Source of the DNA: an uncultured Acidobacteriota bacterium
GTDB taxonomy: Bacteria > Acidobacteriota > UBA6911
NCBI GenBank assembly: GCA_963843575.1
Contig: CAWJKZ010000017.1
Location: forward strand, 260,734-324,733
Direction: 5' to 3'
DNA length: 64,000 nt
The position numbers and the translations under genes are program-made. Positions 11,406 through 37,886 of this stretch are shown here, piece after piece. Numbering within the stretch: position 1 is the first letter of the stretch; every line of letters starts with the position of its first letter. Below the pieces are notes generated by a model that saw only the letters and a list, made by a program, of their open reading frames with translations, did not search any database and had not been told where the DNA came from.

Positions 11406-14400
11406 TTAGGTGCGGGGCGGCGATTCCTCCGCCCCCTGCCGCAGTTCCCACGGCCGGCCCGAGACGAGGTGGGTCCCGCACACGGTGACGGCTTCGTTCA
11501 GCTCGTCGTCCGTCAACGCGGTGACGCGCAGGCCCGTGATGCGGGCCAGCACCGCGTCGAGACTCGATCCGTCCAGGAGCGCCAGCGGCAGCAGCGCCTT
11601 CAATCCCTCCCAGTCCGAGTTTTCCGGCGGCCACGACCAGCGTGCGGAAGTAGAGTCGAGGAATGCAATGCGCATTTCGCGATCGGACATGGCGGCGAAT
11701 TCATCGAGCACGAGCTTGAGGCTGGGCACGTCCCGCGCCAGCCAGCCCCGGCAGGCTTTGACCAGGCGCACCCGGTCCTCGCGGAACTTCGGGTCTCGAA
11801 CATTCGACGCCCTCTTCAGTGCCAGGTCGGCCAGAAGCTCGACCCGGCCCTCGGGGTTGCCGATTTCAATGCAGCGGTTAGCCAGCGCCATGTAAGCCAT
11901 GCTGATGTAACCAGAGTAACCGCTGGCAAGGGCTTCGGCTTCCCCTATCGCACAGAACGCTTCGGCTTTCTTGCCCTGCCGAAAAAGAGCGGCGGCGCGA
12001 GCGGAGCGTTCCCGCATCCTCGTGCCCCAGCGGTCGCAGGCGGCGCGTGCCTTCCCGAGATAGGCGGCCAGGACCGGGGCTTCCCGGTTGCGGCGCCCGC
12101 ATTCCGCGAGCAGGACTGCGGCGAGGTCAAAAGTAAAAGTGACCCCTTCCCCCTGCATCGCGGCGCGCAGAATGCGACGGAGTCTCTGTCGGGCCCACGC
12201 CGGATCGGGCACCGCAAGCACGGCGAGGCTGATTGCCAGGAACGCGATGTCGCGGTAGCGAGGGTAGGGGTTTCTTTCGGCAATATCCAGCGCGTCCTCG
12301 ATTTGGCCCCGGTCGGCGGAATCCCCGGTCAGCTTGCGCAGCGGCCCAAAATCCATGTCGAGACGCCCCGTGCGCTGCTCGTCCACCAACGAATCGTCGC
12401 CGTAGCCCGTGTCCGGGAGCAGCCCCTGCAGAACCTGCATCCTGAGGCTGTTGATGCGTTCGTCGAGAGTCGCGATTAGTTCCTGCCGCTTCCGGGCGTC
12501 GAGTGGTGCCTCTTTGCAGCACTCGACCAACTTTCCCGCTTCGGGACCGCGGCTGAACGCTCCGATCCAGACGGAGGGGGCGTCCGCGGTCGGCGCGAGG
12601 ATGCGGGCAGCCCGGGTGAGCAGTGTCTCGCACAGGGGAAGAGTGTGGCTTGGCTGGATCGCGCAGGTCGCGGTTGCGGCCGTTACCGCCTCCTCGAGCT
12701 TCCCGGCCAGCGCCGCCTCCCAGGCAAGATAGGAGAAGACGACCCCTTCCCAGGCTCCCGAATGGCACAGCAGCCTCGCCCAGGCGAGCGCTTCGGTAAA
12801 ATCTCCTCTGTCGACGCACTTGAGAAGGTCCTCGGTGAGGCTGGCTCTGGGAGCCGTTTCACGGTAGGCGCCTGCGCAAGCCAGGGCCTTGACGGTGTGG
12901 TCCTGCTCGAGGGCGACATGCAAGGCCAGCCGCAGATCTCCGAGGGTGTTCTCTGGACGGCCGAGGATCTCTCTCTGGGCCGCTCGGAATTGCGGATCGA
13001 GCACGAGGGAGTAAAGCTTGTCGAGCTGTCCGGCCGCCTTGAGGTGCTCGGCGTAGTGGCTCAGCGGGTAACTGCTCCGGTTGCGTTTCCAGTCGGCGCA
13101 GTAGGCCAGCAGCCTGTCCCGATACACCTCGGTTTTGATGCACTTGCGCATGTACTGGCGCAGGCGCGGGTGGGCGAGGGCATAGCCATGAGTGTCGTTG
13201 CCCACGACGAAGCGGCGCACCCGCTGCAGGATGTCCTCGAAGAAGTCCTGCCCCCAGTCGTTTACGAGGCTCGGGTTCACAGCCTCGAGATCCGACCTGA
13301 ACATCGGGCCAAAGCAGGCCGTGAGGGTCCCGAAGAGATCGCGCGCCGGGGCGTCGCCGGCGAGTTGCTTGATTTCCTCCCACCACTGATCGAGATAGTT
13401 CGCCAGCCCCTGCGGTTGCGCGGCGAGATTCGCAGCGGTCAGCCGGCCATCGGCCAGGTCCTCCGCGAGCAGGCGCATGTAAAACGGATCGCATCCGAGG
13501 GTCGGATCGCCCTGGTACGAGGAGATCCGCACAACCTCGTCCAGCGCCGCGGAGTCGTCTGCGACCGCAGCGGCGGAGGTCCCGGCGGCACGAAGGACCG
13601 CGGAAACATCGGCGGTTGTCAGGCCCCCAAGTGGCAGGTGTTCCGTCTGGTGCGGCGGCATGCCGTAAATCGCCGACCAATCCTGACCCACATCCCGGAC
13701 TGTCAGGATCAAGTGGAGCCTGGCCGGAAGATGGCGGCTAAGGTACGGCCTCAGCTGCCAGGTCGTGACCTCGTCCAACCCGTCGATGACCAGGACGCGC
13801 ATGCAGTCCAGGTACTCGTCCAGGAGCTTGTGATACAGCGCCCGCAGTTCGTGGACCTTTTCGGGGATCGGGTAGGTGTGAGCGTGCCACTGGGCCATCT
13901 GCTGCACCACGTTGCGCAGGAAGAACTCCTCGCCGAGGCTTCCCGTACCGTAGAGAGGAGTGAAAAAATGGTAAGCGAAAGCCTCCGGATTACGTTTGAC
14001 GATATTGGCCATCAGGGCCGTTTTGCCGAATCCGGCCGGGGCGGTGATCATCAGATACCCCCCCGCGGGCCCGGCAGCGAATTCTTCCACGCGGGCCTGG
14101 ATGTCTTCGCGGCCCGCGAAAAGAGCGGTCCGGTCGTCCAGGAGGGGGGCGAAGACCTCGCGCAGGGCTGGCTTGACCGGTGAGTACCGTTCTTCGGCCG
14201 CCGCAACCGGGGGCCCGATGCGCCACTGGTAGTGACAAACCGCGATGTCCAGGGCGAAGCGGAATGGCCTCTCCGGGCAGTCCAGCTGCTCGCGCCCGGC
14301 GGCGGCTGCGCGCTCGAAGGAAAGGACCCCGGGGTCCGTGCGTCCCGCGGCTTCGGGGACCCCCACGGGCAGCACCTTGCTCTGCGCGAAACCCGTGCAT

Positions 14401-15027: not shown

Positions 15028-16476
15028 TTACTGCTTCAGAATCTCGAATATGTCGTGCACCGCAGGGGGCGATGCGGGACCCGCTTTCCGCGTGCCGACC
15101 TCCACCCGGTACAGCCCGGGGGGCATCTGGTCACGCTCGAGCACCCACTCGCCGTCCAACTCCCGGAACTCCGTCTTCACTGCCGGTCCGCCCGCGAGAG
15201 GCTGGATCCGGGCACCCATTCCACCCGGGTCGTCCCCATAATTCACGAGCCGAGCCCGCATGAGCACCGGATCCCCCGCCACATAGATATCCTCCAGGTC
15301 GAGGGCGATGGCCGCCCCCTGCTCCCTGTCCGCACTGATCTCCGGGCCGCGAATCGCCCCCAGGCCCGGGATCTGCATCTGCCTGAGCCGGTTCCGGAGC
15401 TCGTTGAGCATCTGCAGATTGTTTTGCAGGCACCCGTGCCGTTCGGGTATGTAGCTCTCCCTGTACTCCGCGGAAAGTTCGATCGGAATGGCCGAGAGGT
15501 ACGGAACTGTCCCGTCGCCGTCGTCGAGCAACGGGTCGATCCCGGACGGGAGCGTGCGGCTGGTCACGACGCGCCCATTTGCTAGGCAAGCCGATTGCAG
15601 AGTCGGCTGGCGGGTCCCTACAACCGGCACGATCCGGTATCCGGCCTTGGCGTACTCCGGATCGCCCTGATGGAGCGACACGGCCTGCTCGATCTCCCTG
15701 TGAAACTCCAGCGCGTCCTCCGCCTTCTCCCTGGCGATTCCCGGAACGCCGTCCGTTTCGGCGATTCTGTTGACGGAGCCCCCGCACTCGAGGACTTTGT
15801 AAATCGGGAGCAACTGGTAGACCGACGTGAAGGACCGCATCATGTCGGTCAGATCGAGAAATAGCTTCTTGTAGCCGTTGGCGAGGAAGTCGACGGCGTT
15901 CACGGAACCGCGATACGGGGTGCCAAAGGTCACGAGCGCCCTGCAGTCCCTCCAACCCTCCAGGACTTCCAGGTAGTAGCGTGCCACCAGCCCGCCCATG
16001 CTGTGCGCCAGAAAGATGACCTTCGCATCGGCGGCACCGCTGTGCTTGCGCCAGAGGGGGAGACGGTCCCGGATGAAGGCCTGCAGGCGCCTCGCCGAGC
16101 AACGATTGTCGCGGCGCCAGTCGTAAGGGAATTCGAAAAAATTGGCGGGATTGCCATTCTCGATACTGCCGGCGACAACCTCGAACTCACCTGCGACGAG
16201 CCTCGACATCCCGGAGTACCCGTCGATCTTCACCAGGCCGGGGACCAGGTGGGCGTCGGCCATCACCCGGACCGCCCGCACCCCATCCCCGAGGTCGTCA
16301 ATCGCCGGATCGTCCCCTGAGAGTTTCAACCGCTGCAGCGCCGACCCCAAGGTGACAAGTGCGCTCCATGCGGCCTGACCCGAGATTGCCCAGAGATCTT
16401 TCCCATCTTTCTGAAGCACGCTTCCCGTGATCCCCGGCAGCAGAATCACGAGGTCCCGCATGCGCAATTTGGCCAT
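15028..16476 (-). CDS. LCAT/PGAP1-like alpha/beta-hydrolase (lipase/acyltransferase) with C-terminal beta-sandwich
   Basis: LPGITGS, FPYDWRR, LAHSMGGL nucleophile elbow, GTPYRGS, DGDGTVP, ERHG; no signal peptide. Confidence 0.88.
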   Translation of the reverse strand: MAKLRMRDLVILLPGITGSVLQKDGKDLWAISGQAAWSALVTLGSALQRLKLSGDDPAIDDLGDGVRAVRVMADAHLVPGLVKIDGYSGMSRLVAGEFEVVAGSIENGNPANFFEFPYDWRRDNRCSARRLQAFIRDRLPLWRKHSGAADAKVIFLAHSMGGLVARYYLEVLEGWRDCRALVTFGTPYRGSVNAVDFLANGYKKLFLDLTDMMRSFTSVYQLLPIYKVLECGGSVNRIAETDGVPGIAREKAEDALEFHREIEQAVSLHQGDPEYAKAGYRIVPVVGTRQPTLQSACLANGRVVTSRTLPSGIDPLLDDGDGTVPYLSAIPIELSAEYRESYIPERHGCLQNNLQMLNELRNRLRQMQIPGLGAIRGPEISADREQGAAIALDLEDIYVAGDPVLMRARLVNYGDDPGGMGARIQPLAGGPAVKTEFRELDGEWVLERDQMPPGLYRVEVGTRKAGPASPPAVHDIFEILKQ

Positions 16477-16551
16477 TGGTCCTGCCTCCTGGACGCCGAT
16501 TAACGCGGAATTCCCGGGGGAATCCGTGGTTTGTCCGTTCGCGGTTTCATG

Positions 16552-17427
16552 TCAGACCAGGAGCCGGTACCCGGGATCCAGTTTCTGGTATCCGATCAGG
16601 ATCTCGTGGATGTTGTAGGGGTGGGTTTCTTCACCGCTCAGCGTGTTGCCCACGACCTGAAACACGTGTTCGATCCCTTGGGCGTCGTCGATGTCCACAT
16701 CCGCCATGAACTCCAGCGTCTCCGGTTTGCTGAAGAATGTGACCTGCAGGTTTCCGTAGCGCTCCATCGTCTTGAAGCTGTCTGCCAGGCAGAATCCGGG
16801 TGGGGGAACGTGCAGGGTTCCCGGAACTTCATGGAACAGATCCGCGGCGATGCTGTTCTTGACCTCATCGCGCAGCTCCTTTTCGACACGCGCGAAAAAA
16901 CGGTCGCCTCGAATGCGAGTCAGGCTGGCCACAAAGGAAAAAGCGTCACGCCCGTTGGGAAACCGGGTCGCCTTCATCCTGGAGTAGATATTCAGAAGCC
17001 CGGCCTTGCGCAGGTCGTCCAGCGCGGAATAGAGTGCCGGCCCGGCGAGGTCCCCGGTTCCCTCGACGACCGACCGCGCGAGAACCTGCTGCAGGTCCGC
17101 GGCGCAGGACGCGTAATCAGGAAACTCCGCCTTGATGACACGTCGGGGGTCCACGGGCAGCGTGATGGCGTAACGAACGGTCTTCCCCTCGCTGACCTGC
17201 ACGAAGCGGCTCACCGGAAGGTGGCGCATCGGAAAGACGCCCACGCGGTAGCAACCGTTGGGCGGGCATTCCAGGTCCCGGATACGCAGCCTTTTTGTTG
17301 CCTGCACATCTCTTGCCTGGGTCACGTTGCCGAGCAACGTGTGGGTCAGCGAGACATCCAGCCGGTCGTCCGGCCGCTCTCCGTTCACATCTGCGAAATC
17401 CAACAGCAAGTCGCCTTTGTTGGTCAT
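16552..17427 (-). CDS. Hypothetical protein (beta-sandwich N-terminus, His/Asp-rich C-terminal domain)
   Basis: ATG 17427 after AGAGGGA; sits in an operon between the GMC and lipase genes. Motifs SFKT-x3-GNLQVTF, ADVDIDDAQG-x2-H, THPYNIHE. Confidence 0.75.
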   Translation of the reverse strand: MTNKGDLLLDFADVNGERPDDRLDVSLTHTLLGNVTQARDVQATKRLRIRDLECPPNGCYRVGVFPMRHLPVSRFVQVSEGKTVRYAITLPVDPRRVIKAEFPDYASCAADLQQVLARSVVEGTGDLAGPALYSALDDLRKAGLLNIYSRMKATRFPNGRDAFSFVASLTRIRGDRFFARVEKELRDEVKNSIAADLFHEVPGTLHVPPPGFCLADSFKTMERYGNLQVTFFSKPETLEFMADVDIDDAQGIEHVFQVVGNTLSGEETHPYNIHEILIGYQKLDPGYRLLV

Positions 17428-17503
17428 CGATCCCTCTGCGATCGGCGGCACGCTTCGATCGGGAAGCACGGCCCTGAGTCGCCGCAAACGGCCGCCGCCT
17501 TAC

Positions 17504-20500
17504 TTATGACACTCTCTCGAGCACGTAGTTCAGAACCATCGAATTCTGCCGGGGCTCAAGGTAGCCACACAGCGCGGGCTGGAGAACTGGGTCCCGGAGC
17601 CACAGGGCCGAAGGGGCGGACACCCACCTGCCGAGCATCGTCTGGTCGTCCACGATCCGCATCTCCTCCGCTATGCCCGCCGAAGCCACGAGTCTCGCGA
17701 ACTCGTCGGTCCAATAAGTCGGGCCGCCTGCAGGGCCGAGTCCAAAGCTAAACCTCGCTTCTGCGCCGTTGGCTGTGGGCAGGAATCTGACGTGGAAGGC
17801 GACCGGGTTGACCTGGTTGAGCAGGCTCACGTCCGGCCTGGTCAAAAAGAGGATGTGCCCTCTCCACTCTCCCGCGATTTCGGTCGGTTTCGGGACGCGT
17901 GCCCGGTCGCCGGTGAATATGGCCAGGTGATCGGGGACGGACATGTTCTTGAAGGGATAGTTGTGCCGCGCCATCACGAACGTCGCAAACTCGAGACCCG
18001 TCGGAAACGTGCCCAGGTGCATGACCCCTATACAGTCGTTCTCGCCAACCGCTTTGATGACGTCGTAGACCATCCGGTACGGCGCATTCGTGTATGTCAA
18101 AAGCAGGACGTCGTCTCCTGCCTTGACGAACTTGCGGTTGTCGTCTGGGTAGCGCAACTGCTCGACGACGGGCCTCCCGGGCAAGCACTGAAGCTCGTAA
18201 TTGACGACGTAGCCTGAAAGCGACCCGCTCCGCATCCCGTCGAAGCGCTTCCAGAAACTCCCCCCGGTGTATCGCTCGGCGGGGGGGCGTTCACCCAGCG
18301 CCAGGGCGGCGGCACGCAGGCGTTCCTCCCACCCGAGCAGGGTGTCCCGCGCGAACGATCCTTTCCAGAAAGAGTCGCGCAGGATGCGGCGATTCGCGTA
18401 GTCGATCCGGACGCTCCCCCGGTTGAGCAGCGTTTCGAGCGGCCGCGTAGGGGTCTCGCGCATGATGGTCTGCAGTTCCGGCGTCGGGCGGGTGCTGAAA
18501 TAGTCGGGGATCTCGGCCCCGCGCAGGACCGCCTCGCGCACTTCTTCCGCGGCAAACCCGCCCTGAGCGCTGAGGGGATCGTACTCACGCATCACGAACT
18601 GGTTGGTCAACGCCAGGAACCGGAGCAGGCCGCGCGCTTTCAGGAGGGGATTGTCCGTGCCGGTCACCTCGAAGGAGCGCAGAAAGGCCGCGAAGCTGCC
18701 TGCCGCCTCGATGTCTTCGAAGGTCCGGAACCTGAGCAGCCCGGAGCCCAGGCCGGCGCCGGATGCCGTGTCGGAAAGCCGGCAGTAGAGCGTGGTGTAG
18801 TCCCGCAGGATTTCGCGAATCCCGGCAATGCCGCCGCGCTTGTTCTTCTGCATGTACTTGCGTCCGTGCAGCAGGTATTCCGTGCGTGCGGGATCGCGGA
18901 AATAGACGTGATAGAGCATTTCCGCTTCGCCGGTCGCCGGGTTGATGCGCAAGTAGTTGAAGTAGCTTTTGTCCGCATTGATCTCGAAGGTTGCGGGGCC
19001 CTGTCCTCCGAAGTCGCCGAAGTGGATTGTCCCCCGCATGCGCGCTTCGTGTTCGGGGCTTTCGAAAAATTCGTTCAGGTCGCGCACCGTCATCCGGACC
19101 TGGAAACTGCAGGGCAGCTTCTGCTCCGGCCCCGAGACCCTGGCTTCGATTGCCCCATCCCCTTCGAATCCCGGCGGAGGCAGAAACCCGGGGAAGTAGT
19201 GGCCGGTCATTTCCTCGTCGAACGTCATGCCCAGCCCATCCGGGAGCCGGACATCGAGGAGTGGGGCCAGGAAGGGGGAGGGCGGCGGTTTGTCGGGGCC
19301 GCTCCTGCGCAGCGTGTAGTAGAAGGAAAACTGCGGCGCTCCGCCGGCGCCGGACTCGAGCTGGAAGAGGCCGATGGAGCTCGGTCCAAACAGCTGCGCG
19401 AGTCCCGGGGGAGACGCCGTGGTGTACTTTCCGACCATGAGATCCGGACCGATCGCGCGGATCTCGTCGTGGAAGGGGGTAAAGTCGTTGAGTTGGAAGT
19501 GGTCGTGCGCGAACACGGGTTCGGCCATGCCCTCGAGCAACCCGAGCAGCTGGTATCGCGTTTCGAGGCGGCCGTCTGGTTTCAGCTCGAAATTCAGGTA
19601 CGCCACGACGCCGGTGTTCGCCGCGTTGGAAACCATGCGCATCTCCCACAGGCCGGCGAGCTGCTCTTTGGCCGGGGCCGGCGCGCTCTCGTAGAGACGG
19701 CGGTGATCTGCCACCGTCGCCTCGTCGAGGCCGTAAACCCGTGTCATGGGGAAGGTGAAGAGCCGGAGACCGTTCGGGAATTCGCCCAGGTACACCCTGC
19801 CGATCAGCAGTTCCTCGTTGACGATCTTGAACACATCGTAGAAACCGCGCCAGGGATCGTCAGGATAGCGCAGCAGGATGTACTTGCCCGGTTCCAGGGT
19901 GGCGGTCCTGGTGGTGATGTGGATCTCCTCGAGCGTGTTCCTGGCGCGAATGCGGCCGTCCGAATCGGATGTCTCGCCCGTGATGCCCCCGGCAGTGCGC
20001 GTAAACCGCTTTTTAAACCCGGCGAAGAATGCCGTCGAGAACTGGTTCAGGATGTGGCGTCGCGGGAAGAAACCCTTCCAGCACGTGTCATTCCTGATAA
20101 TGCCCCGATCGCCATCGATGCCCACTTCGCCGCCGTTGACGATGGTCGCGACACCCAGGCTCTCGACGCGGCTGAAGATACGCTCCAGGTCCGCTTCCTT
20201 GTAGTTGAGCACCTCCAGCGGATCGAGCCCGGGCACGGTGATCCGGGCAGGGCGCTCCGGATAAGCTTCCCCCCCGACCGAACGGACGAGCCTGTCGGCG
20301 ATCCGCTCGGAGAGGGCCGAGATCGTGAGGAACGGGTTCACCCCCAGTGCCGAGGGGATAAGTGAACCGTCGGCAACGAACAGCCCCGGGTGGATGCTGC
20401 CGTCGCCGGCGAACACCCTCCCGAACTCGTCGGCCGCCCCCTGCATGTAGTCCTCGCCGAGGGGGCAGCCGCCGAGCGGGTGGGCAGTGATCAGGTTGCG

Positions 20501-21970: not shown

Positions 21971-22258
21971 GGCAAAGCTCTCCCGAAATGAGCGCTAGAA
22001 ATTGAGGTTCAAGCCAGTTCCCCGAGTAACTGAACGTACTTGTTACAGAATGTGATACCGTGCGCAGCGGCTTGTCAAGCCCGATTGCAGGCTGGAATAC
22101 GATGCCGTTTTTTCGGACGCGGATGGACGCAGGTCCGCGCAGATAGAAAACAAAGGCATTAGTGCCAGGCCGGTGTTCATCTACGTCCCGCTGTTTATAT
22201 TCCGACAATTCTGTGTTACTTCTAGGCCATTCGATTGTCCTCACCAGGAGTGCACGAC

Positions 22259-26645: not shown

Positions 26646-26709
26646 TGGAGTGCGGCGACTCGCCGCCGCAATGTCGCGATTCGGGGTGGCGCCGAGGCGC
26701 CGCACTCCA
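26646..26709. repeat. REP-like palindrome (GGAGTGCGGCG...CGCCGCACTCC type)
   Basis: 12-bp inverted repeat TGGAGTGCGGCG / CGCCGCACTCCA with inner hairpins, between the CHAT and metacaspase genes. Confidence 0.6.
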
Positions 26710-29700: not shown

Positions 29701-32138
29701 ACATTGAGCAGGTCCAGGAGGGCCGGGAAAGCGGCGGAAGTGTTGGCGAGATCGCCGTGTTCGACATCCATGTAGTAGGTCTTGCTCTTCAAATCGGACG
29801 GAACGCCGGTCGCCCACGGGACCCGTCCATCGCCCTGGGCGGTGGCATGCACGACGACGCGGTGACCTTGGGGAGCGGACGTGTCGATGGTTACGTCGCA
29901 GGGGGTGGCCGCAGCGCAGCCCGCCACATAGATCATCCGATCCGGATCTATGGGGCTCGCGTGCAGCAGGTCCCGGACCCTCGCCGCCTCGGCCAGGTGC
30001 GTGGCCTCGGGGACAGGCCACTCGGATTGCGAGCCGTTCTGCTGCAGGACACGCCAGGTCGCAGCGTCGTAGGCGTCGAGCGAGCCTTCGTGCGGCAGCA
30101 TCTGCAGCACCCCCGCAAATGCGGAAAAGAACTCGAGCAGCTCGCCACATCCGTGTCTGATGTCGACCAGCGCAAGCTTGCGCACCAGCGCGTCACGCCC
30201 CATCAGCATGGCTGTGATTGCGTGCGAGCCTCCGTTCGGAGTGCCCAGCATTATGAAACGGGCGCCCGGGTGCCGGCACATGCGTTCCCAGACTTTCCAC
30301 CCTTCCGGCGTCGCCAGCATCGCACGCACCGCCAGTCCTCCCATCGCGTGGGCGATAATTCGGACCGGTTGGCTGCCGGCTTCGGCCTTCGCGAGCTTTT
30401 CCTCGATGCGGAGCCGCAACGCCTCCGCCGTTTCACAGACCGATTGGCGCCAATCGTACGCGAAGGGAACGACCTCGTGGGTTTGGGCGAGGAAGCGCAC
30501 GAGCTCTCTGTAGCTGCCGGCGACGAGCCCGTCCGGGCTGACATTCCGCCCGCCCGCCTGCAGATCGCGCAAACCGCCCGACGCAAGACTGCAGATGTCG
30601 AGCCAGACCCTGGATTTGCCAGCTTTCAGGTGACTTCCCATCAGTCCCGGCAACACGAATACGACCGGCTGGGAATCCACCGCGCGCTTCCTGTAATCAT
30701 CCTCCGTGACTTCGTAGGGAGGCTTTTCCAGGAGGTGATAGGAGTCCTGATCCGCGGCGGCCAGGCCGCCGAGCAGCCGGCTGGCCGTGTCGTCATTCCT
30801 GAAATAGCTGAAATGGTCCACCTTCGAGCCGGTGTCTATCCAATAGCGGATGCCGGCGGTCCTGCTGGCGCCGCCGAACATGGACGGCGTGTTGACCACC
30901 AGGTCATGGTCCTCCCGATAGAACAGGTCGGTGACCAGGGCCTTGAGCCGGCTCCACATCCCCTCTCCCGCCAGGTCGCCTCCCAGGACGTGAAGGTCCG
31001 CCCCGGTGTCGAGCCCGGGGCGGTTCAGCACCCGGATCAGCGGGGCTTCCGGCATCATCGCCTCCAGTCCCGGCAACTCACGTGGGTCGGTCCGGTTTTT
31101 GACCACCGCGAGCAGAAGCGCCGAGACGGCGTCGAACACGGGATTGGCCCTCATGCCGGGCGCCCGTTCGAGGACGTTCACCACGATCGACAGGAAACGA
31201 TCGAGCCGGCCGCCGGCGAGCGTGGTGCCCCTCGTGGGGCAGGCAACCCGAATGAAGCGTTCCACCCGCAACTGCCGTGAAGCGAGGATGTCCTGCAACT
31301 GCTGAAGCGCAGCGCGATCGCGCTGCCGGCCGGGGCCGTCGAAAAGTTTCAGCTCCGTCTCTTCGAAAGGAGCGCGGCCAACCAGCATTCCGCGGCAGAG
31401 GAGCTCGCCGACAAGCCCGCCGCGGGAATGCGAAACCAGGTGCAGCCTGGCGCCGTTTGGAAGGGCCTTTGCCAGTTCCAGCGCATTTTCAATCGGGCTC
31501 TCCGTCAATGTGCGGTGCTGAAATGCAAGCACCCGGCCCTCGTAGAGTTTGAGGAGGTCCGAGATACGGGCGTGAGGCGCGTTTTCCCACAGCCCGCCGA
31601 AGCTCCCCCCCGTCGTGGATGCCGTCCCATGGATGAACACCAGCAGGGGCTGGTCGGCCGGCGCCAGTTCGACCGGGCTCAGGTCGTCGGGGCTTGCGCC
31701 GCCGCAGCGGTAGAGGCCGGCTCCCGGCTTGAGGACACTCTCGACTTTTTCCCGGATCAGATCCGTGATTTCAGACGGCATGTCGACGCCGAGTATCTTC
31801 AGACCCTTGATCACCCACTGGCCGACACCGCGGCTGGGAGTGCCAAGGGGGAGGACCTGCGGGATTTCGAAACTGTCCGCAGCCGGACCCCGCCGCGTCC
31901 ACCCAGCCAGGTCGCCCTTCAGATCGTCGGCACGCGTCCACAGCCGGATTCCTCCGTCCAGCTCCAGTTCAACGAGGTCATCGTCGGCGACATCCACGGT
32001 GCGCGGCGCGCTTGCGGACCGGTCCATCGCGATTTGAACGCCGTACTTCGGCCGGATGGTCCCGGGGCCAAGCGCCCGGGCAAGGTCCGTGTTCTCGGGT
32101 GTGGAATCGACTTTTCCGTAAAAAGAGAGTGTGGGCAT
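26721..32138 (-). CDS. 1805-aa multidomain protein: two alpha/beta-hydrolase domains, M17-N/macro-like domain, CHAT protease, TPR-like tail
   Basis: FIHGT...SHSRGG (hydrolase 1); LPGLMGS, YDWR, AHAMGG, GDGRV, EHGDL (hydrolase 2); VVHGNL...VVGHY...GAIVVGLG; [44 protein letters not shown]. Confidence 0.9.
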
Positions 32139-32390: not shown

Positions 32391-33629
32391 TTGGACATCA
32401 AGAGCTTTCTCGAGCAGCTGCCTGCAGCCGCAAGCTCTCCGCTCGCCCTCGGGTCCTACGCGCTGGTGCTTGCCGCCTGGATCGTGGTCGTCTGGCTGCG
32501 CCAGAAACCGCAGCGCGAGGCGCGCCGAATACTCGAGCAATACAAGGACGACGATAAGCGCAATAAGGCGCTGGCATCGCTGCTCGGAACGGCGCCTCCG
32601 GAAGGCCTTGCGCGCCGGGAGATTCTCGAGTGGGTGAAACTGAAGTCCGCCGATTCGACCCGGACCTATCTTCTTATTGCGTATCTCGCGACGCTGGCGG
32701 CCCTGCTGATCATCGCGGTGTCGGCCCTGTTCAAGCCCGGAGTGGCTTCACCGGCAGACGTCAAGGTGACACTGCACGGGGTGGGAGGACCTGCCGATTG
32801 CCCGCCGCTCCCGTTCTCCACGGAATTGGTGGTTTCGGTAAACGGCAAGCCGCAGGCGCGGGTCCCGGTAAGCGGCTGCGAGGTCGAAGTACCGGCAACG
32901 GCCGGTTTGCGCCCCGGGACCGCGGCTACCGTATCGCTCGACAATTCCGGCCCTTTCCAGGTCGCGGCCCCGGCGGCGAAGTACGAATTCGGCTCCGGCA
33001 AATGGTATGTCGCCGTGGGCACGCAGGCGAACGGCCCGCGTCTGATCGTCCACCTCTTCAAATACGGCGGCGCATCGGAGCTGCCGGAACGCCGCGTGAA
33101 GTTCGATCAGTTCTCCACCATCATCCGCCAGAAGATCCAGGACCTCGGGCAGGAACTGGCCTCGCAGAACGAGGCCTGCGCATACCTGACTGGCCTAACG
33201 GTGGTGCGCTCCGACCGTGAGCTCGATTTCAGCCCGCGCGATACGCTTGAGTACTGGAAGAAATCCAACTCGCTCCAGATCCTCTCCGGTCTTCTGGACC
33301 AGCGCGGCGGCGGGTTTTTCGTACGAAGCCGCCCATACTTCGGCGAGCTCGCGGCAGGCAGTCCGGCAGAACGCGTGGAACTCGAGCTCAACATCGATGC
33401 GGAGGAGTTGGGCAAAACGCTCGACAGCCACTCGCTCGCGCTGCTATACGCCCTGGCGTCGGACGCCAGGCGGCGCAACCTGCCGTCCGAGGTCGTCTTC
33501 ATTTACCTCGCGCGGGCGGTCTCGATCGCCCGCGAGCTCGACGCGTCGGTCGCCGGCGCTTCCGGCCTCAAACGGGCAATCCGCGATCTGTTCCGAAGCA
33601 TGGGCCGCCCAGAACCACTAGAGCTCTGA
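32391..33629 (+). CDS. Hypothetical membrane protein (2 TMs, extracytoplasmic beta and alpha/beta domains)
   Basis: TTG start; hydrophobic stretches LALGSYALVLAAWIVVVWL and YLLIAYLATLAALLIIAVSALF; stop 1 bp before the next ATG. Confidence 0.7.
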   Translation: MDIKSFLEQLPAAASSPLALGSYALVLAAWIVVVWLRQKPQREARRILEQYKDDDKRNKALASLLGTAPPEGLARREILEWVKLKSADSTRTYLLIAYLATLAALLIIAVSALFKPGVASPADVKVTLHGVGGPADCPPLPFSTELVVSVNGKPQARVPVSGCEVEVPATAGLRPGTAATVSLDNSGPFQVAAPAAKYEFGSGKWYVAVGTQANGPRLIVHLFKYGGASELPERRVKFDQFSTIIRQKIQDLGQELASQNEACAYLTGLTVVRSDRELDFSPRDTLEYWKKSNSLQILSGLLDQRGGGFFVRSRPYFGELAAGSPAERVELELNIDAEELGKTLDSHSLALLYALASDARRRNLPSEVVFIYLARAVSIARELDASVAGASGLKRAIRDLFRSMGRPEPLEL

Positions 33630-33630
33630 T

Positions 33631-34680
33631 ATGACTTTCCTGCGCGCAGCCGTTTTTACCGTCGCCATGGCTGTGCCCGTAATGGGGCAGGAAGTCGGCC
33701 TCCTGGTGGCGCCTTTCGAAGGGCCGGGCAACCTGGGGGCTCGCACGGCGACGGTTCTCAACCTTCAGGTGTGGCAGACTCTGCGCGCCGCTCCGCACCC
33801 GAACCCACACGGTCTCAATTTCGGGAGTGGAACGGTTTACTTCATGCCGGAAGGCTCAATGCCTGTGCGCAGTCACATCGAGGCCGAGCGAGCCGCCGAC
33901 GGGCAAGCCCAAGCCGTTCTGTGGGGGCGCGCCCAGCCTTACGGCGACGGCGTCGTCGTCCAGGCGTACCTCTCGGTGCCGCGGGCGACCTCGCCGGGCC
34001 ACCCCGGAGGAACCGCCATCTGGAAGATTGCGCTTCCCGACGGGCAGAGCATCTCGGTCGATATCCCGGCCTGGCGTTATGAGTTCGCGCCGATCGTGCT
34101 CAGGACCGAAGCCGTGTTGCAGCTGAACACCCCCGAGGGACTGAAGCTCTACAGGTCCCCGCAGTCGAGCGAAGTGCTCGGGTCCGTAGGCAGCCGGTTC
34201 CGCGCGCTGGAGCAGAGCCCGAACGGCGCGAAAGTGGAGTCCGCGGGAATCACCGGTTGGGTGCGCCTGCCGCAGCTGTCGCGCAATCGAAGTGAAGTGG
34301 TCGACTTCACCGGGGCACTCGTCCGCATCTTCCGGAAGGACTGGGGCGGAGCCCTGGAACTGTTCAGCCGCGTCGTCGGCAGCCAGACCGCGCCGGCGAC
34401 CATCAAGGCTTACTCGCTGCTGATGATGGCAGCGGCATCCGAGCAGGTGAGCCATCAGACAGGGCAAGCCTCGCGTGCGGTGGAATTCGTGAACCAATCG
34501 TACCGGCTGAACCCGTATCTGCAAGCGACGGTCCGGTACAAGTGCATGGCGCACCTGGAGGACATGGCCCGCACGACATCCGCGAAGCGGCAACTCGCCG
34601 AAACGGTCGCGCGCAACGAGTATCTCTTCCCGAAGACGGACAGATGGATCGGCAAGGTGAAAGCGGTGCTCGCGAGATGA
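33631..34680 (+). CDS. Secreted hypothetical protein (TolB-N/CsgG-like, SH3b-like, TPR-like)
   Basis: Signal peptide MTFLRAAVFTVAMAVPVMG; LLVAPF...AQAVLWG; LKLYRSP...GITGWV SH3-like segment; helical C-terminus. Confidence 0.65.
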   Translation: MTFLRAAVFTVAMAVPVMGQEVGLLVAPFEGPGNLGARTATVLNLQVWQTLRAAPHPNPHGLNFGSGTVYFMPEGSMPVRSHIEAERAADGQAQAVLWGRAQPYGDGVVVQAYLSVPRATSPGHPGGTAIWKIALPDGQSISVDIPAWRYEFAPIVLRTEAVLQLNTPEGLKLYRSPQSSEVLGSVGSRFRALEQSPNGAKVESAGITGWVRLPQLSRNRSEVVDFTGALVRIFRKDWGGALELFSRVVGSQTAPATIKAYSLLMMAAASEQVSHQTGQASRAVEFVNQSYRLNPYLQATVRYKCMAHLEDMARTTSAKRQLAETVARNEYLFPKTDRWIGKVKAVLAR

Positions 34681-34910: not shown

Positions 34911-37886
34911 ATGCCTAGCCTCTCGCTCAAGAGAACAGACCTCCCGTTTCTGCTCGGCGGCAACGGGGAAGTCTCCGTCGATTCGGGTGACCTGCAACTG
35001 GGTCGGCCAATCAACGAGGCAAGCCCGGCCCTGCTCAACGTCCGTTTCGCGGCGCAGGGAAGCGACAAAGTGGCTCTGGGCCAGCCCGACACCGTCAAGG
35101 TCGCGGTCTCTACCGCGGAGACTCTCAATTTGACCGCTATCTTCCCGGGCTCGACCGGCCCCGCAGCCAAACTGGCCGGGACCTGCGGGCTGAGCGACTT
35201 CTTCGAGAACGGCGAGAACGCCGACAAGCTCATCCTCGCTCTGGATACCGGAGCCTCGGCCGGCGTTTCCGCGGCGGGGTCGTTCGCGTATTCGGCGCTG
35301 AAGACCACCGTCGAAGTGAACGCGGGTATCGACGGGGGGTACTCGTACTTGCGGGCTTTCGACAAGTCGCTGCCGGTCCGACAGGTCCTGATCGATTTCT
35401 TCAGAACAATGAGGCTTCCCGAACAGGTCAATACCCAACCGGAGGCGGGCGAGGCGATTTCGTTGCGCTTCGGCGGCTACCTGCGGATGGCGGCAGAAGC
35501 CTCCGCAGGCTATCGGCTCGCCGGCACCCGGTCCACCTCGCTCGGGCACATGGCGCTTTCGGAAAAGTACAATCTGAGCGTCCTAGGCAAGATCGGGCTG
35601 GCGGCCGGAATCGCGGGTCATTTCTCGGTTCTGGTGACGGCAGCGCCCGGATTGCCGGGCTGGGCACGGGTCCAGGTTCACCGGGAACACTCCGGCGATT
35701 TCAAGGTGGCCGCCGACGTGAACGTGGGATACAAGAACCAGCTGGACGGCCTGCCCTCCAGTGCGGACGAGTTCCTCGGCGCGGTGCTCGGCGTCAATGC
35801 CAAGAATTTCCTGAACGTGCTGCAGAAGGCTCACGAGCTCTCCGACTTCGAGAAGTTCAAAGGCGCCGTCGACGGCCTCGCCCGGAAATATGTCAGCGAG
35901 TTCATCGGCGAGGGCTTCGAGAAACTCGGATCCGAACCCAGGTTTAATGCCTTTCTCGCACGCGTCCACGCCGTGGTGAACAGCTACGAGGAAGTCGAAG
36001 ACCGCGCCGTTACGTTGTTTGACCGGTTTTTCCACAACCTCCCGGACTTGACCTCGTTTCTCGAGAAGATCCAGGGCCTGGCACCGGGCACGGTGCAGTC
36101 GTTGAGGAACAACCTCAGCCCCCAACTGTGGAACATACTGTCGCAGCTTACGGACGGGGACCCGCTCGGTTTCCTGCTGGAGCAGGTCGTCGTGGAGGGC
36201 AAAAGGGTCGATAGCCTGGCCGAGTTGAAACAACGCGCCGCCACGTCGCTCGACCTCGTCAGGAACGACGCCCACGCCGAGATCCGCAACGCCATCGCCC
36301 TTGCGAAGCAGGCATTCGGCGTGGACGGATTCTTCCGCGAGCTGGCCAAGCTCGACACGGTCGACGAGCTCCAGGCGCTGGCGAATGACAAGGTAGGGCA
36401 ATTCGTGACCCGGCTGGTCGGCCGAACGCTGGATTCGGCGACAAATCTCAAGGAGGCGTTCAAGCAGGTGAAGGCGGTCCTCGACCGGGCCGACGACTTC
36501 AAAGAGAAGCTCTACAAGGGTTTCAAGGAGGCGTCCAGGAGCTCCTACCAGGTCGCCCTGAGCGCGGCATACAGCCATGCTTCCGAGGACGACGCGCTGA
36601 TTGATCTCCTGGTCAACGTGTCCGATCGTCGGGGCGCCGACCTGCTCGCCCAGGCCGGCAGGGGTGATTTCGAACAAATCCTGACCACGTCCGACGCCGG
36701 GCTGGTACGGCTGCTCGAGGGCGTGTTCACCCACCAAGTGCGCCGCGAGCACTCGTGGAAGGTCAACATTCTCGGCTGGCACCTGAACTACGAATACGAG
36801 GGCTTCGACCGCGTCATCACCGAAACCGAACAACGGCTGATTCCGTCCGACCAGGGCCTCACAGTGCTCACGACTGCGGATCTCACCGTCGAAAGAATGC
36901 GCAAACGCAACGATGAACAGACGCACGTCAATTTCCTGCTGCGAGCGTTGGGGGAGTCCGCCCGGGCGCTCAGGTCGGAGAGAGCGGACTCCGCTTATTT
37001 CATCGAGGCACTCGAGTCGACGACGGCGCGTTATCAGTTGAGCTTTACGGACGAGGACACCTCGACGGCCGAACTGCGCGACTACCTGGCGTTTGCCGCC
37101 GACGTGCAACTCGACGCCGAGGGCGCCACCCTCGAGGCGCTGAAGCCATTTCTCCCCCAGGCCCAGAACGGCGGTTTCGGGAAGGTCGAAACCCGCTACG
37201 ACATCCGCTTCGGCCCAAAGGCCGTAAACGCGCTGCTGTCGGTGAAGCAGCTTTCGGCTGCCGGAGAGGCCGCGGTCCGGAACGCGATGCGTCAGATGGT
37301 TCTCTCGAACTATCTGAAAAACCAGGAGCAGCACGACGTTGCGTTTGCCTATGCTTCCCCGGGAGTGTTTGACATCTTCTCCAGGGAAGGCTTTGCGGAG
37401 TTCGGAAATCACTCCCGGCGTGTCTTCGCCGTCAAGCTGTCGAATCCCGGGATTGCGGCCCCTTCGCAGGTGGCGCTGGATCGTATGAAAATCGCCGTCT
37501 TGACGACGCTGTACAACATTGAGAACTCGATGATCCAGGCCATCAAAGACTTGTACAAGCTGCTCGGAGCCGGGGAGGCGATGGATCCCCGCGAGTTTGA
37601 AAAGAAGCTCGCCAGGTTCGGCAGCGCGATGAACGATTTTGACGCGTTCGATCAAACCACGAACAGGAACGGGTGCGGTACCAGCACGATCTTTGCCATG
37701 TTCGATGTGCTGGTGCGCCTTGCATCCGCCGGCGACCCCGCCAACACGGCGATGCTGCGGGTGAGGAGCGAGGCGAATGGCAAAGAGGTGGAGAAGATCT
37801 TCCTGTCGCGCGAGGCGGCAAACACGGTCCTGACGACCGCGGATCCCGCGCCGCGTCGTGCCCGCATTCGTCGCGCAGGATCCTGA
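34911..37886 (+). CDS. 991-aa hypothetical protein (beta-rich, helical, beta-rich)
   Basis: ATG after GGAGGAG; long intact ORF; no signal peptide and no recognisable catalytic motif. Confidence 0.85.
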   Translation: MPSLSLKRTDLPFLLGGNGEVSVDSGDLQLGRPINEASPALLNVRFAAQGSDKVALGQPDTVKVAVSTAETLNLTAIFPGSTGPAAKLAGTCGLSDFFENGENADKLILALDTGASAGVSAAGSFAYSALKTTVEVNAGIDGGYSYLRAFDKSLPVRQVLIDFFRTMRLPEQVNTQPEAGEAISLRFGGYLRMAAEASAGYRLAGTRSTSLGHMALSEKYNLSVLGKIGLAAGIAGHFSVLVTAAPGLPGWARVQVHREHSGDFKVAADVNVGYKNQLDGLPSSADEFLGAVLGVNAKNFLNVLQKAHELSDFEKFKGAVDGLARKYVSEFIGEGFEKLGSEPRFNAFLARVHAVVNSYEEVEDRAVTLFDRFFHNLPDLTSFLEKIQGLAPGTVQSLRNNLSPQLWNILSQLTDGDPLGFLLEQVVVEGKRVDSLAELKQRAATSLDLVRNDAHAEIRNAIALAKQAFGVDGFFRELAKLDTVDELQALANDKVGQFVTRLVGRTLDSATNLKEAFKQVKAVLDRADDFKEKLYKGFKEASRSSYQVALSAAYSHASEDDALIDLLVNVSDRRGADLLAQAGRGDFEQILTTSDAGLVRLLEGVFTHQVRREHSWKVNILGWHLNYEYEGFDRVITETEQRLIPSDQGLTVLTTADLTVERMRKRNDEQTHVNFLLRALGESARALRSERADSAYFIEALESTTARYQLSFTDEDTSTAELRDYLAFAADVQLDAEGATLEALKPFLPQAQNGGFGKVETRYDIRFGPKAVNALLSVKQLSAAGEAAVRNAMRQMVLSNYLKNQEQHDVAFAYASPGVFDIFSREGFAEFGNHSRRVFAVKLSNPGIAAPSQVALDRMKIAVLTTLYNIENSMIQAIKDLYKLLGAGEAMDPREFEKKLARFGSAMNDFDAFDQTTNRNGCGTSTIFAMFDVLVRLASAGDPANTAMLRVRSEANGKEVEKIFLSREAANTVLTTADPAPRRARIRRAGS

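Follow-up and report, generated by a model that had tools for sequence, protein, structure and literature searches.

A dominant logic of prokaryotic immunity, according to recent proposals, is the gating of death effectors by proteolysis. Gating of MBL nucleases by proteases was demonstrated in Lamassu, AVAST and DRT systems (Tuck et al. 2025, PMC12799240), and a preprint (Evans et al. 2025, PMC12642450) connects MBL clades 1-3 with proteases of the trypsin-like, caspase-like and S8 types. The same preprint describes a caspase-like protease that cleaves an α/β-hydrolase zymogen into a death effector (LcCaspase/LcHydrolase). Further relatives are the SAVED-CHAT to PCaspase cascade of type III-B CRISPR (10.1101/2023.06.23.546230), the two-gene EACC1-caspase system and the STAND conflict systems (Kaur et al. 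2020, PMC7159879), and the bacterial NACHT proteins (bNACHTs), among whose effector domains a transglutaminase-like cysteine protease is listed (Kibby et al., 10.1101/2022.07.19.500537).

We analyzed a window of 64,000 nt from a soil Acidobacteriota genome (6.68 Mb, 88% complete), in which an island of ∼26 kb (positions 11406-37886) carries 11 genes, g1-g11 (Table 1). All reading frames are intact, as an earlier note on this DNA had claimed, and are backed by GC3 values of 0.76-0.82. The GC content of the island is 0.644 vs 0.641 for the genome, and a search for marks of a mobile island found no tRNA, integrase or island-specific repeat; the inverted repeat flanking the island is a REP-like element with 26 matches genome-wide. 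Several of the island families are rare in their own genome: the only Pfam match to C14 (g7), one of the two matches to CHAT (g8) and both matches to LCAT lie in the island, and tblastn (1e-4) detected no paralogues of g1-g11 in the genome outside the window. Nearly all domains named in the earlier note were upheld by Pfam or by motifs, including its three LCAT-type hydrolase domains (LCAT in g2, DUF7379 and LCAT in g8). Its statement that the core enzymes lack signal peptides holds for g1-g8 and g11, which have neither signal peptide nor membrane anchor; a signal-peptide-like N-terminus is present in g10, and an N-terminal hydrophobic helix in g9.

Table 1. Features of the island; positions are those of the window.
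Feature	Position	Strand	Length	Description
g1	11406..14903	-	1165 aa	NACHT STAND NTPase; head weakly transglutaminase-like, C-terminal region weakly TPR-like
g2	15028..16476	-	482 aa	LCAT/PGAP1-like α/β hydrolase without signal peptide
g3	16552..17487	-	311 aa	orphan family, GC3 0.77
g4	17504..21970	-	1488 aa	cholesterol-oxidase-like GMC flavoenzyme (residues 1-580) fused to ∼900 aa
g5	22235..24148	+	637 aa	very large unnamed family, invariant HExxH...E...D, gluzincin-like motif
g6	24156..25646	+	496 aa	MBL-fold hydrolase, candidate protease-gated pro-nuclease
g7	25669..26532 (open frame to 26838)	-	∼287 aa from Met103	C14 caspase-like protease
hairpin	26646..26709		22-nt arms	91% complementary; 3' of the g8 stop, 5' of g7; terminator-like
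g8	26721..32138	-	1805 aa	DUF7379 and LCAT-like hydrolase domains and CHAT protease
g9	32391..33629	+	412 aa	orphan, N-terminal hydrophobic helix
g10	33631..34680	+	349 aa	orphan, signal-peptide-like N-terminus
g11	34911..37886	+	991 aa	belongs to a uniform ∼970-aa family; no known domain

Based on the observed domain content, catalytic motifs and gene recurrence, we classify the region as a defence- or conflict-type accessory island composed of at least four independently inherited modules rather than one pathway, with a probability of about 0.6. Its immune or conflict character, proposed earlier, is supported by the effector heads of g1 relatives, by the plasmid defence genes beside g5-g6 homologs, and by an Azotobacter homolog of g8 located next to a restriction-modification (R-M) system. 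The proteolysis-gating logic would appear here in a poorly studied soil phylum and in forms not yet characterized. The claim that the combination matches no named system stands in so far as no complete PADLOC system was found among 10 of the 11 island proteins (all but g8), which was the expected outcome of that scan. The logic itself is no longer unnamed, because protease-gated MBL and α/β-hydrolase effectors have already been described (PMC12799240 and PMC12642450).

The earlier note had proposed a single route from sensor through protease cascade to lipid attack. In its fullest form, all 11 genes make one system, in which g1 senses a trigger, its transglutaminase-like head, g5, g7 and the CHAT part of g8 relay the signal, and the lipases, the GMC oxidase and the MBL protein damage membrane and DNA. 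The genes are indeed tightly packed into four transcription units with short gaps, and rare families cluster in this genome. Cross-links between the families also exist elsewhere: one locus (G008:C1) holds a GMC gene, an α/β hydrolase, a ceramidase-like gene and a g11-like gene; GMC genes lie near g11 in loci L032 and L047; a g11-like gene stands beside g6-g5 in L088; and a g3-like gene lies 7 kb from g11 in L027. However, no other genome examined has more than three island families together, and the recurring sets are only pairs or triads (g5 with g6, g3 with GMC, and g8 or C14 with g11). The g5-g6 pair travels alone on plasmids, g1 lacks close relatives in the 401 phylum genomes and belongs among proteins described as mostly single-gene systems, and no adaptor domain common to the island proteins was detected. 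We consider the one-system explanation very unlikely.

A genome of the same genus (G001) agrees with the modular interpretation. In a 60-kb stretch of this genome, only two of the 26 query proteins were matched, g8 (truncated, residues 1-858, 82% identity) and g11 (85%), which are adjacent and divergent there; g1, g3, g4, g5, g9 and g10 were not found in G001. The absence of these genes says little about the island boundaries, because the G001 flanks are unsyntenic as well. The predicted co-occurrence of the families as a set was not found, given that this relative keeps only truncated g8 and g11, that close relatives of g1 are missing from the phylum genomes, and that g9 and g10 are orphan genes. 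Thus 'cell-death' domains that lie strikingly close together in one genome can reflect a mosaic and not a pathway.

The g5 family is unnamed and comprises at least 8000 sequence clusters (8000 of the 8000 scored candidates matched). The HETTH sequence at residue 207 of g5 belongs to a pattern invariant in the family, consisting of HExxH, a Glu 23 residues further on, and then Asp. Thermolysin has HExxH...E...D spacing of the same kind. The name 'M4-like gluzincin' given to g5 in the earlier note agrees with this motif pattern and not with profile searches, since neither Pfam, NCBIfam nor PDB returned a match to M4 or any other peptidase family, and PADLOC gave no match either. Homologs of g5 were identified in 32 of the 401 phylum genomes and on 46 plasmid records, and at 57-67% identity the protein matches entries labelled Actinomycetota, Planctomycetota, Myxococcota and Pseudomonadota.

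The description of g6 as an MBL hydrolase is supported by a metal-binding motif of the HxHxDH type (HEHWDH, residues 92-97) and a PADLOC match to LmuA-MBL (4.6e-12), though Pfam Lactamase_B (0.0019) is under its cut-off. Its other defence-library matches are Avs1a (7e-4) and RTasMBL (6e-3), so that PADLOC matches are limited to the MBL models of Lamassu, AVAST and DRT; NCBIfam gave Avs1a (2.3e-4, 20 bits vs a cut-off of 420) and 6A-MBL (3.6e-4). All these matches to defence MBL models span only residues ∼27-137 and are far under the family cut-offs, and no PDB sequence matched g6.

An MBL homolog lies directly 3' of g5 in 12 of 20 Acidobacteriota loci and in all seven plasmid loci, and no MBL gene was found near g5 in 7 of the 20 Acidobacteriota loci. 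In 9 of these 20 loci the g5 domain forms the C-terminal end of a frame of 1180-1434 aa, with Peptidase_S8 present in five of five tested, and in one locus (L102) a C14 gene abuts g5. The gene 5' of g5 on plasmids encodes a patatin (3 of 7) or an AAA ATPase (1 of 7), and one of the seven has an S8-fused g5. According to depositor annotation, the plasmid neighbors of g5-g6 include a CBASS oligonucleotide cyclase, SAVED, DUF1837 with a DEAD/DEAH helicase, and SIR2, as well as an AAA ATPase with HNH, integrases and IS elements.

The g5-g6 pair resembles the published protease/MBL pro-nuclease modules and keeps the adjacency to a candidate protease gene. HamM (HamMAB), Avs1a, the Lamassu and DRT variants and CanABC ('canu') likewise place an HxHxDH MBL beside a protease-type gene (PMC12799240 and PMC12642450, available parts), and the canA-canB-canC order of protease, middle gene and MBL is also that of g5-g6 loci. 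S8 and C14 partners of these modules recur around g5 relatives, and the plasmid-borne pairs sit among defence genes. In contrast to those modules, the pair in the window has no trypsin, caspase or S8 domain, leaving the HExxH domain of g5 as the sole candidate protease, presumably active; the available portions of PMC12799240 and PMC12642450 do not name a metalloprotease or zincin class for MBL modules. Further differences are that g5-g6 has no fused sensor (STAND, HamA or RT), and that g6 exceeds the Avs1a models by ∼100 aa and aligns to them at the N-terminus only. We suggest that the gluzincin-like g5, in relatives fused to or flanked by S8 or C14 proteases, would cleave and so license g6, which would then degrade DNA after the precedent of HamM, Avs1a and CanC. 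If so, this MBL partner family with its invariant zincin motif could represent a fourth protease class for MBL licensing.

A further module consists of clan-CD proteases with hydrolases. The metacaspase call for g7 is confirmed by Pfam (Peptidase_C14, 2e-24) with an intact His (YSGHGG) and Cys (DSCHSG) dyad; Met103, at position ∼26532, is the most likely start. Equally, the CHAT protease call for g8 is supported by Pfam (1.2e-34) and by conserved HVAGHG and FVNCCH motifs. The remaining g8 domains match DUF7379 (2.3e-34), with a SHSRGG elbow, and LCAT (2.1e-7), whose elbow reads AHAMGG, the nucleophile Ser being replaced by Ala in this copy. Homologs of g8 on plasmids have ∼1770-1795 aa and are 33-35% identical over ∼1620-1700 aligned residues (blastp), which makes g8 a conserved ∼1800-aa protein with two lipase-like domains and a CHAT protease; the Azotobacter homolog is plasmid-borne and adjoins a type I R-M system and IS elements.

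The LcCaspase/LcHydrolase system (Evans et al. 2025 preprint, PMC12642450, available part) likewise combines clan-CD proteases, here g7 and the g8 CHAT, with lipase-like α/β hydrolases, here g8 and g2, and the effector in the window is similarly predicted to be latent and intracellular. Unlike LcCaspase/LcHydrolase, g8 fuses two hydrolase domains in cis to CHAT, and in two lineages the g8 module is accompanied by g11 and by a C14 gene separate from g8. The g8 hydrolases are of the LCAT/DUF7379 type, one of them without its nucleophile here. The SAVED-CHAT to PCaspase cascade (10.1101/2023.06.23.546230, available part) also has a CHAT gene beside a C14 caspase. Pfam gave no SAVED match for g8, and the window proteins scanned included no CRISPR-associated family, which sets this locus apart from type III SAVED-CHAT/PCaspase systems. 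As for the EACC1-caspase system, g7 matches the NCBIfam model 'caspase, EACC1-associated type' weakly (1.1e-7; 31.5 bits, far under the cut-off of 140), and the small single-TM EACC1 gene is absent 5' of g7, where g8 is found across a 190-nt gap that holds only the hairpin. No island protein has a Pfam match to gasdermin. We suggest that the g8 CHAT and the g7 C14 protease act together as a brief cleavage relay, by which one or both lipase-like hydrolase domains of g8, and possibly g11, would be released or switched on, with membrane damage as the outcome. For this relay, as for the other modules, we infer the cleavage steps, their substrates and any anti-phage phenotype.

The g11 family includes 725 representative clusters and has a patchy distribution in Acidobacteriota, with two loci labelled Acidimicrobiia. 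The family appears to be exchanged between Acidobacteriota lineages. Across its loci, g11 neighbors g8-like, C14, GMC, ceramidase-like and patatin genes, so that this large family is repeatedly found beside caspase-type proteases and lipid enzymes. A g8-like gene adjoins g11 in 4 of 40 g11 loci (the window, L024, L026 and L037; phmmer), and a further locus (L046), with a 279-aa g8 fragment, was added by BLAST clustering. In L026, a C14 gene with 45% identity to g7 stops 1 nt short of g11, and in L037 a g8-like frame of 2128 aa begins 1 nt past it. CHAT occurs in none of 31 control loci (g5 and g3 loci), a difference (4/40 vs 0/31) that is not significant alone. About 30 of the 40 g11 loci have no other island gene nearby, and the genes directly coupled to g11 are mixed (PPK2, GDPD, HlyD, MFS, metallophosphoesterase).

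We tentatively extend these observations to a broader, though unlikely, proposal, in which g11 would be the constant hub of undescribed proteolysis-coupled, lipid-directed conflict systems with exchangeable partners (CHAT, C14 or C11 proteases, LCAT/DUF7379, patatin, ceramidase-like and GMC enzymes). In the window, CHAT (g8) would act on C14 (g7), thereby licensing the g8 hydrolase and g11 against the cell's own membrane, with g5-g6 as a parallel MBL nuclease gated by a metalloprotease, a fourth protease class for such modules. The g5, g8 and g11 candidates are compact, with one to three genes each, and can be tested for phage defence.

By its sequence, g1 is a stand-alone bacterial NLR-type protein. 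The NACHT/NPHP3_N core (∼residues 262-440) has Walker A (GFGKT) and Walker B (VIDGLDE) motifs, and is found by Pfam as NPHP3_N (25.5 bits, cut-off 24.8) and NACHT (1.2e-5; 25.6 bits, cut-off 26.7). The earlier description of a transglutaminase-like domain on a STAND NTPase is well founded for the core. Its transglutaminase part (∼residues 47-231) corresponds to sub-threshold matches to Transglut_core (0.074) and DUF553 (0.097), an NCBIfam ProA region match (3.3e-14) and a Cys/His motif. The tail matches only TPR_2 (0.02), and relatives have clear TPR or WD40 tails. The NACHT part is 55-63% identical to that of STANDs whose heads are TIR, C14 caspase, trypsin or DUF4062 and whose tails are TPR or WD40, and relatives that cover the head as well have ∼40% identity.

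Like bacterial NACHT/NLR-related anti-phage proteins and STAND conflict systems (Kaur et al. 2020, PMC7159879), g1 has a NACHT core, here between a putative effector head and a putative repeat tail, and heads are swapped among its close relatives. In contrast to known bNACHT heads, that of g1 is only weakly recognizable, and g1 may be the last gene of an operon with g4-g3-g2, an arrangement described as rare among tested bNACHTs (10.1101/2022.07.19.500537, available part). The C-terminal repeat region of g1 may sense a trigger and the NACHT core oligomerize, with the transglutaminase-like cysteine-protease head as the effector.

The g4-g3-g2 genes are best seen as a lipid-enzyme module (GMC fusion, recurrent partner g3 and LCAT-like lipase) that may supply further effectors. 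The cholesterol-oxidase-like GMC assignment of g4 is corroborated by Pfam (GMC_oxred_N and GMC_oxred_C) and by its best solved relative, cholesterol oxidase 1coy (5.4e-24, PDB). The GMC part contains an invariant, Fe-S-like Cys motif (CxxCxxCxxxC), and ∼residues 886-1117 form an α/β-hydrolase-like region; in G008:C1 two separate genes, one GMC and one Abhydrolase_1, correspond to these parts. The g2 protein matches Pfam LCAT (9e-14), has an intact nucleophile elbow (AHSMGG), and is 25% identical over 384 aa to residues 492-800 of g8. No Pfam, NCBIfam or PADLOC match was obtained for g3, which has invariant His/Asp-rich motifs at the C-terminus of its family alignment and occurs in 18 of 137 genomes of the class. 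Among 11 g3 loci examined, a GMC gene is present in the same stretch in four and an LCAT-like gene is adjacent in one. A 406-aa plus-strand ORF (16531-17751) between g2 and g4 was rejected by GC3 in favor of the minus-strand g3 frame.

These enzymes raise the question of whether the cluster serves immunity at all. It might instead remodel lipids or the envelope, or scavenge nutrients (sterol/hopanoid-like alcohol oxidation, acyl transfer and proteolysis), with STAND and caspases as unrelated passengers. The kinship of g4 to cholesterol oxidase with its Fe-S-like motif and the recurrence of LCAT-like, ceramidase-like, GDPD, patatin and DLH enzymes near g3 and g11 are in line with this, as are the genome-typical GC and the flanks, which code for transporters, glycosidases and peptidases; cholesterol-oxidase-like, LCAT-like and, in relatives, ceramidase-like enzymes fit lipid metabolism equally. 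On the other hand, g1-g8 and g11 carry no export or anchoring signals, spread is patchy with high cross-phylum identity (as for g5), g5 and g8 occur on plasmids beside known defence genes, and hydrolases occur in one polypeptide with CHAT or trypsin proteases, which makes a metabolic cluster quite unlikely.

Cholesterol oxidase, LCAT and neutral ceramidase act on lipids typical of eukaryotes. The lipid modules (g2-g4, g8 and g11) could serve to attack or repel eukaryotic grazers or other bacteria, being directed at sterol, phosphatidylcholine and sphingolipid membranes and having no part in abortive infection, in agreement with the predicted substrates of the closest characterized families. 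However, the island showed no sign of secretion (neither a signal nor a secretion-system gene) and no small immunity-like gene, and pairing with intracellular clan-CD proteases better fits self-directed, gated effectors, so that we regard this explanation as highly improbable. Within the modular island that we favor, the two remaining genes, g9 and g10, are probably orphan envelope proteins inserted between g8 and g11: among the 137 class genomes, g9 is present only in the window's own, and g10 in two, one of them a weak match.

Eleven intact genes, g1 to g11 from left to right, make up the island and are organized into four transcription units, as judged from stop-to-stop frames with GC3 values of 0.76-0.82 (Table). 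The genome, G000, has an assembly of 6.68 Mb in 27 contigs that is 88% complete, in which the window corresponds to G000:C17:260734-324733; it falls in Acidobacteriota by the source labels of homologous proteins and by titles of related records, and many near relatives carry the label Vicinamibacterales. The coding frame between g2 and g4 is a 311-aa minus-strand ORF (GC3 0.77); an overlapping plus-strand candidate is longer, yet its GC3 is just 0.62, and it was rejected as a gene. The outline of the island in the earlier note, with its intact ORFs and nearly all of its named domains, is borne out by frames, GC3, Pfam and motifs. Its statement that the core enzymes lack signal peptides holds for g1-g8 and g11; g10 has a signal-peptide-like start, g9 an N-terminal hydrophobic helix, and neither feature occurs in the other island proteins. 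The note expected no complete known system; PADLOC, applied to 10 of the 11 proteins (all but g8), gave partial matches only, in which g6 hit models for the MBL components of Lamassu, AVAST and DRT, and g7 a caspase model.

Positions of the island, its units and other features of the window
Feature	Position	Strand	Remark
Amidohydrolase	10022-11003	minus	overlapping frames 10022-10384 and 10374-11003
AT-rich stretch	about 11000-11100
Inverted repeat	11315-11346 / 34821-34852		REP-like
Island	11406-37886		g1-g11
Unit g4-g3-g2-g1		minus
Rejected ORF	16531-17751	plus
g4 Cys motif	about 21347-21379	minus	residues 198-208
Unit g5-g6		plus
Unit g8, then g7		minus
Hairpin between g8 and g7	26646-26709
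Unit g9-g10, then g11		plus
Three-gene run	43160-48011	plus	M23 peptidase with PKD; 605-aa protein without Pfam match; radical SAM/SPASM enzyme
Stretch shared with G001	52410-55027		97% identical to G001:C5:326680-329309
GH123-like gene	52432-54558	minus	GC3 unusually high (0.86)
Tricorn-type protease	57367-60697	minus	overlapping frames 58154-60697 and 57367-58434
Contig end	64000		end of C17 (324,733 bases)

Within this genome, the clustering of these families exceeds chance, because the only C14 match (Pfam), one of the two CHAT matches and both LCAT matches lie in the island, and tblastn found no paralogues of g1-g11 elsewhere in the genome. The other CHAT domain is at G000:C19:182318-183124, in a 1289-aa frame. 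Classic marks of a mobile island are absent from the stretch: GC content shows no anomaly (0.644 in the island, 0.641 in the genome) and no tRNA was found at the island. The inverted repeat was considered as the island ends and rejected, being a dispersed REP-like element with 26 matches in G000; this element is rich in CGCGGAT, has short matches in G001, a genome of the same genus, and brackets g1-g10 with two copies as an inverted pair. The window stops at the end of its contig, so the right-hand context is cut. Soil-metagenome DNA from 3 runs of 2 studies covers small shares of the stretch (0.05-0.10) in pieces of 84-341 nt, none of which bridges genes; the few joints are single low-depth contigs with short sides, and no matching RNA run is listed among the sequencing runs.

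The earlier note had read the island as one pathway, from a sensor through a protease cascade to an attack on lipids. This single-pathway model is not supported, and the island is not one system, since its homologues are not co-localized as a set: a single conserved island is ruled out by the genomes G001, G008 and G027 and by 39 g11, 11 g3 and 20 g5 loci. The 60 kb around the g8 match in G001 contain only a 908-aa g8 homologue, which spans g8 residues 1-858 and is without CHAT, and g11 (85%), adjacent and divergent; the other 24 query proteins have no match in that stretch, and g1, g3, g4, g5, g9 and g10 were not found in G001 (81% complete). This pattern shows that inheritance was independent, though it gives no insertion site: G001 is unsyntenic for the window flanks as well, and synteny returned no answer on the island borders. 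Taxonomic distributions were recorded gene by gene. Among 137 genomes of the class, matches were obtained in 18 for g3, 11 for g11, 1 for g9, 2 for g10 and 42 for any part of g8 (mostly CHAT alone), and among 401 genomes of the phylum, in 32 for g5 and 7 for g1, the latter all weak and domain-level apart from g1 itself. No adaptor domain of the EAD or Death type is common to the island proteins, none of which has an EAD Pfam match; all-against-all BLASTP links only g2 and g8. Cross-links between modules do occur elsewhere, with GMC genes near g11 (L032, L047), a g11-like gene beside g6-g5 (L088) and a g3-like gene near g11 (L027), which suggests islands shared between modules, a habit of defence systems, and does not suggest one machine. 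What stands of the earlier reading is the immune or conflict flavour of the island, backed by the families represented and by their setting in other replicons.

For the first gene of the island, g1, the best reading is a protein of NLR type that stands alone. Its NACHT/NPHP3_N domain was confirmed by Pfam, and its NACHT part is 55-63% identical to that of many STAND proteins whose heads are TIR, C14, trypsin or DUF4062 and whose tails are TPR or WD40. The head of g1 has weak matches to Transglut_core (0.074) and DUF553 (0.097) and a local match to the NCBIfam model 'anti-phage protein ProA' (3.3e-14), for which nothing usable was found in the literature; a subset of relatives, ~40% identical, shares this head. 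Kibby et al. (10.1101/2022.07.19.500537) count a cysteine protease of transglutaminase-like type among the effector heads of bNACHT proteins and describe the tested bNACHT genes as rarely lying in operons.

In the g5-g6 module, the g5 protein has no family match in Pfam, PADLOC, NCBIfam or PDB sequences, and carries an invariant HExxH followed by E 23 residues on and D four further. The g6 protein contains HEHWDH with a sub-threshold Lactamase_B match (Pfam) and nothing meaningful among PDB sequences. The g5 family is very large (8000 of 8000 scored candidates matched; typical length ~640 aa), includes proteins 57-67% identical labelled Gaiellaceae, Methylocaldum, Gemmataceae, Polyangiaceae and Thermoanaerobaculia, and all but one of the source-given names of its members are 'hypothetical protein'. 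Of the 20 Acidobacteriota loci fetched, 12 have an MBL homologue directly 3' of g5, as do 7/7 plasmid loci. In 9/20 loci the g5 domain is the C-terminal part of a longer frame of 1180-1434 aa, with Peptidase_S8 on the N-terminal side in all five such frames tested, and in L102 g5 is abutted by a C14 gene. Family members were found on plasmids in 46 records, of which 21 are conjugative; in seven plasmid contexts the gene 5' of g5 encodes a patatin (three) or an AAA ATPase (one), and in one g5 is fused to S8. Annotated plasmid neighbours include a CBASS oligonucleotide cyclase, a SAVED protein, DUF1837 with a DEAD/DEAH helicase, SIR2, an AAA ATPase with HNH, ImmA/IrrE, integrases and IS elements; we take DUF1837 plus helicase to be a Hachiman-type pair, and AAA ATPase plus HNH a Septu-type pair. 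On Agrobacterium and Rhizobium plasmids (L106, L111), patatin, g5 homologue, MBL, DUF1837 protein and DEAD/DEAH helicase are co-directional, with the g5-MBL pair directly upstream of the DUF1837-helicase pair; together these genes may constitute a HamMAB-related composite system. No paper was found that places patatin, MBL-fold protein and metalloprotease together in an anti-phage setting.

By analogy, g5-g6 can be read as a putative relative of published protease-gated MBL modules, because those described in the consulted parts of PMC12799240 and PMC12642450 fit it. There, MBL pro-nucleases of Hachiman, AVAST, Lamassu and DRT variants are activated by a neighbouring protease, as are those of caspase-nuclease 'canu' loci (Tuck et al., PMC12799240), and three protease-associated MBL clades are distinguished, trypsin-like, caspase-like and S8 (Evans et al., PMC12642450). 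Unlike these modules, the g5-g6 pair of the window has neither S8 nor caspase and retains the zincin-motif protein alone; a metalloprotease class is not named for MBL modules in the parts of either paper compared. An MBL clade tied to S8 or another protease, with g6 as a member, may be shown in Fig. S2 of PMC12799240 and in supplementary figures of PMC12642450. On this analogy, g5 would license g6.

The g4-g3-g2 genes encode a lipid-enzyme module. The g2 protein matches LCAT (9e-14, Pfam) and keeps AHSMGG, and g4 combines GMC_oxred_N and GMC_oxred_C (Pfam), with cholesterol oxidases as the closest solved structures of its GMC part (1coy, 5.4e-24). A C-x2-C-x2-C-x3-C motif inside the GMC domain of g4 is invariant in five homologues; it resembles an Fe-S cluster motif and suggests, from the sequence, a dehydrogenase rather than an oxidase. 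In 4/11 g3 loci a GMC gene lies inside the fetched stretch, at a distance of 25 nt to about 1.4 kb, and an LCAT-like gene adjoins g3 in one of the 11; on G008:C1, GMC and alpha/beta-hydrolase occur as a split pair, with a ceramidase-like gene and a g11 homologue 5 kb away. For g3, a PDB profile search gave noise only (T4 lysozyme at 0.013), and no match was found on plasmids.

The g8 protein unites DUF7379 (2.3e-34), LCAT (2.1e-7) and CHAT (1.2e-34), and g7 is a Peptidase_C14 (2e-24; all Pfam); the His and Cys of both CHAT and C14 are present. SHSRGG is kept in the DUF7379 domain, for which the literature search found no paper, and the LCAT-like domain has AHAMGG in the window copy, with Ser kept in G001, L037 and three plasmid homologues. 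The architecture is conserved in 1767-1795-aa homologues on Azotobacter and Paracoccus plasmids, 33-35% identical over about 1620-1700 aligned residues (blastp). The copy in Azotobacter is solitary, its neighbours being a type I R-M system and IS elements. Among plasmid relatives of the hydrolase part, one bears the annotation trypsin-like peptidase. A ~1090-aa gene upstream of the Paracoccus g8-like genes proved not to be a g11 relative. The closest worked example for the pairing of CHAT/C14 with a lipase-like domain, in the part of PMC12642450 consulted, is a caspase-activated alpha/beta-hydrolase zymogen. By extension, CHAT could relay to C14, with lipase activity released as a possible outcome. 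Nothing relevant was found in the literature on cholesterol oxidase combined with caspase, lipase and CHAT, and lipase, LCAT and cholesterol are not mentioned in Kaur 2020 or Kaur 2021.

The g11 family is uniform (~970 aa), with 725 representatives at E<=1e-3 and 106 clusters at 90% identity. The best 150 matches of a profile search are full-length relatives and fragments only; g11 has no Pfam domain (16 scattered single or double matches among 31 members), no match to PDB sequences and none on plasmids. Literature searches returned no published description of the g5 family, the hydrolase-hydrolase-CHAT protein or g11, supplementary material excepted, so none of the three has a printed description that we could find. 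By phmmer, 40 g11 loci (the window and 39 others that were fetched) contain a g8-like hydrolase in four, CHAT in three and GMC in three, with CHAT in 0/31 control loci. C14 was detected in L026, and its count is 2/40 because the window g7 was absent from that ORF set. The C14 gene of L026 shares 45% identity with g7 and stops one base short of g11, and in L037 a 2128-aa g8-like frame starts one base after g11. Pfam matches of 99 immediate neighbours are TPR-S and PG_binding (three each) and DUF7379, patatin, C11, C14, phage lysozyme, GH46 and DLH (two each). Ten tightly coupled neighbours comprise PPK2, a glycine-zipper protein, a metallophosphoesterase-cupredoxin, GDPD, HlyD, TPR-S+patatin, MFS, a TPR protein and two proteins without Pfam match. 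Given such mixed neighbours, g11 is without a fixed partner; a minority of its loci, ~1 in 7, do link it recurrently to clan-CD proteases and lipid hydrolases. Any part for g11 in a mechanism of the island would be conjectural.

Several features were observed outside the island. The amidohydrolase patch has low GC (0.56), runs into the AT-rich stretch and is 90% identical to G001:C12; its two frames are likely a frameshifted gene. The stretch around the GH123-like gene is far closer to G001 than other shared stretches (66-90%), which points to recent transfer or exceptional conservation. In the Tricorn-type protease, PD40/Tricorn_C1 is followed by Tricorn PDZ/S41, and the overlapping frames reflect either a frameshift or two genes. 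The three-gene run with the radical SAM/SPASM enzyme is possibly a peptide-modification cluster.
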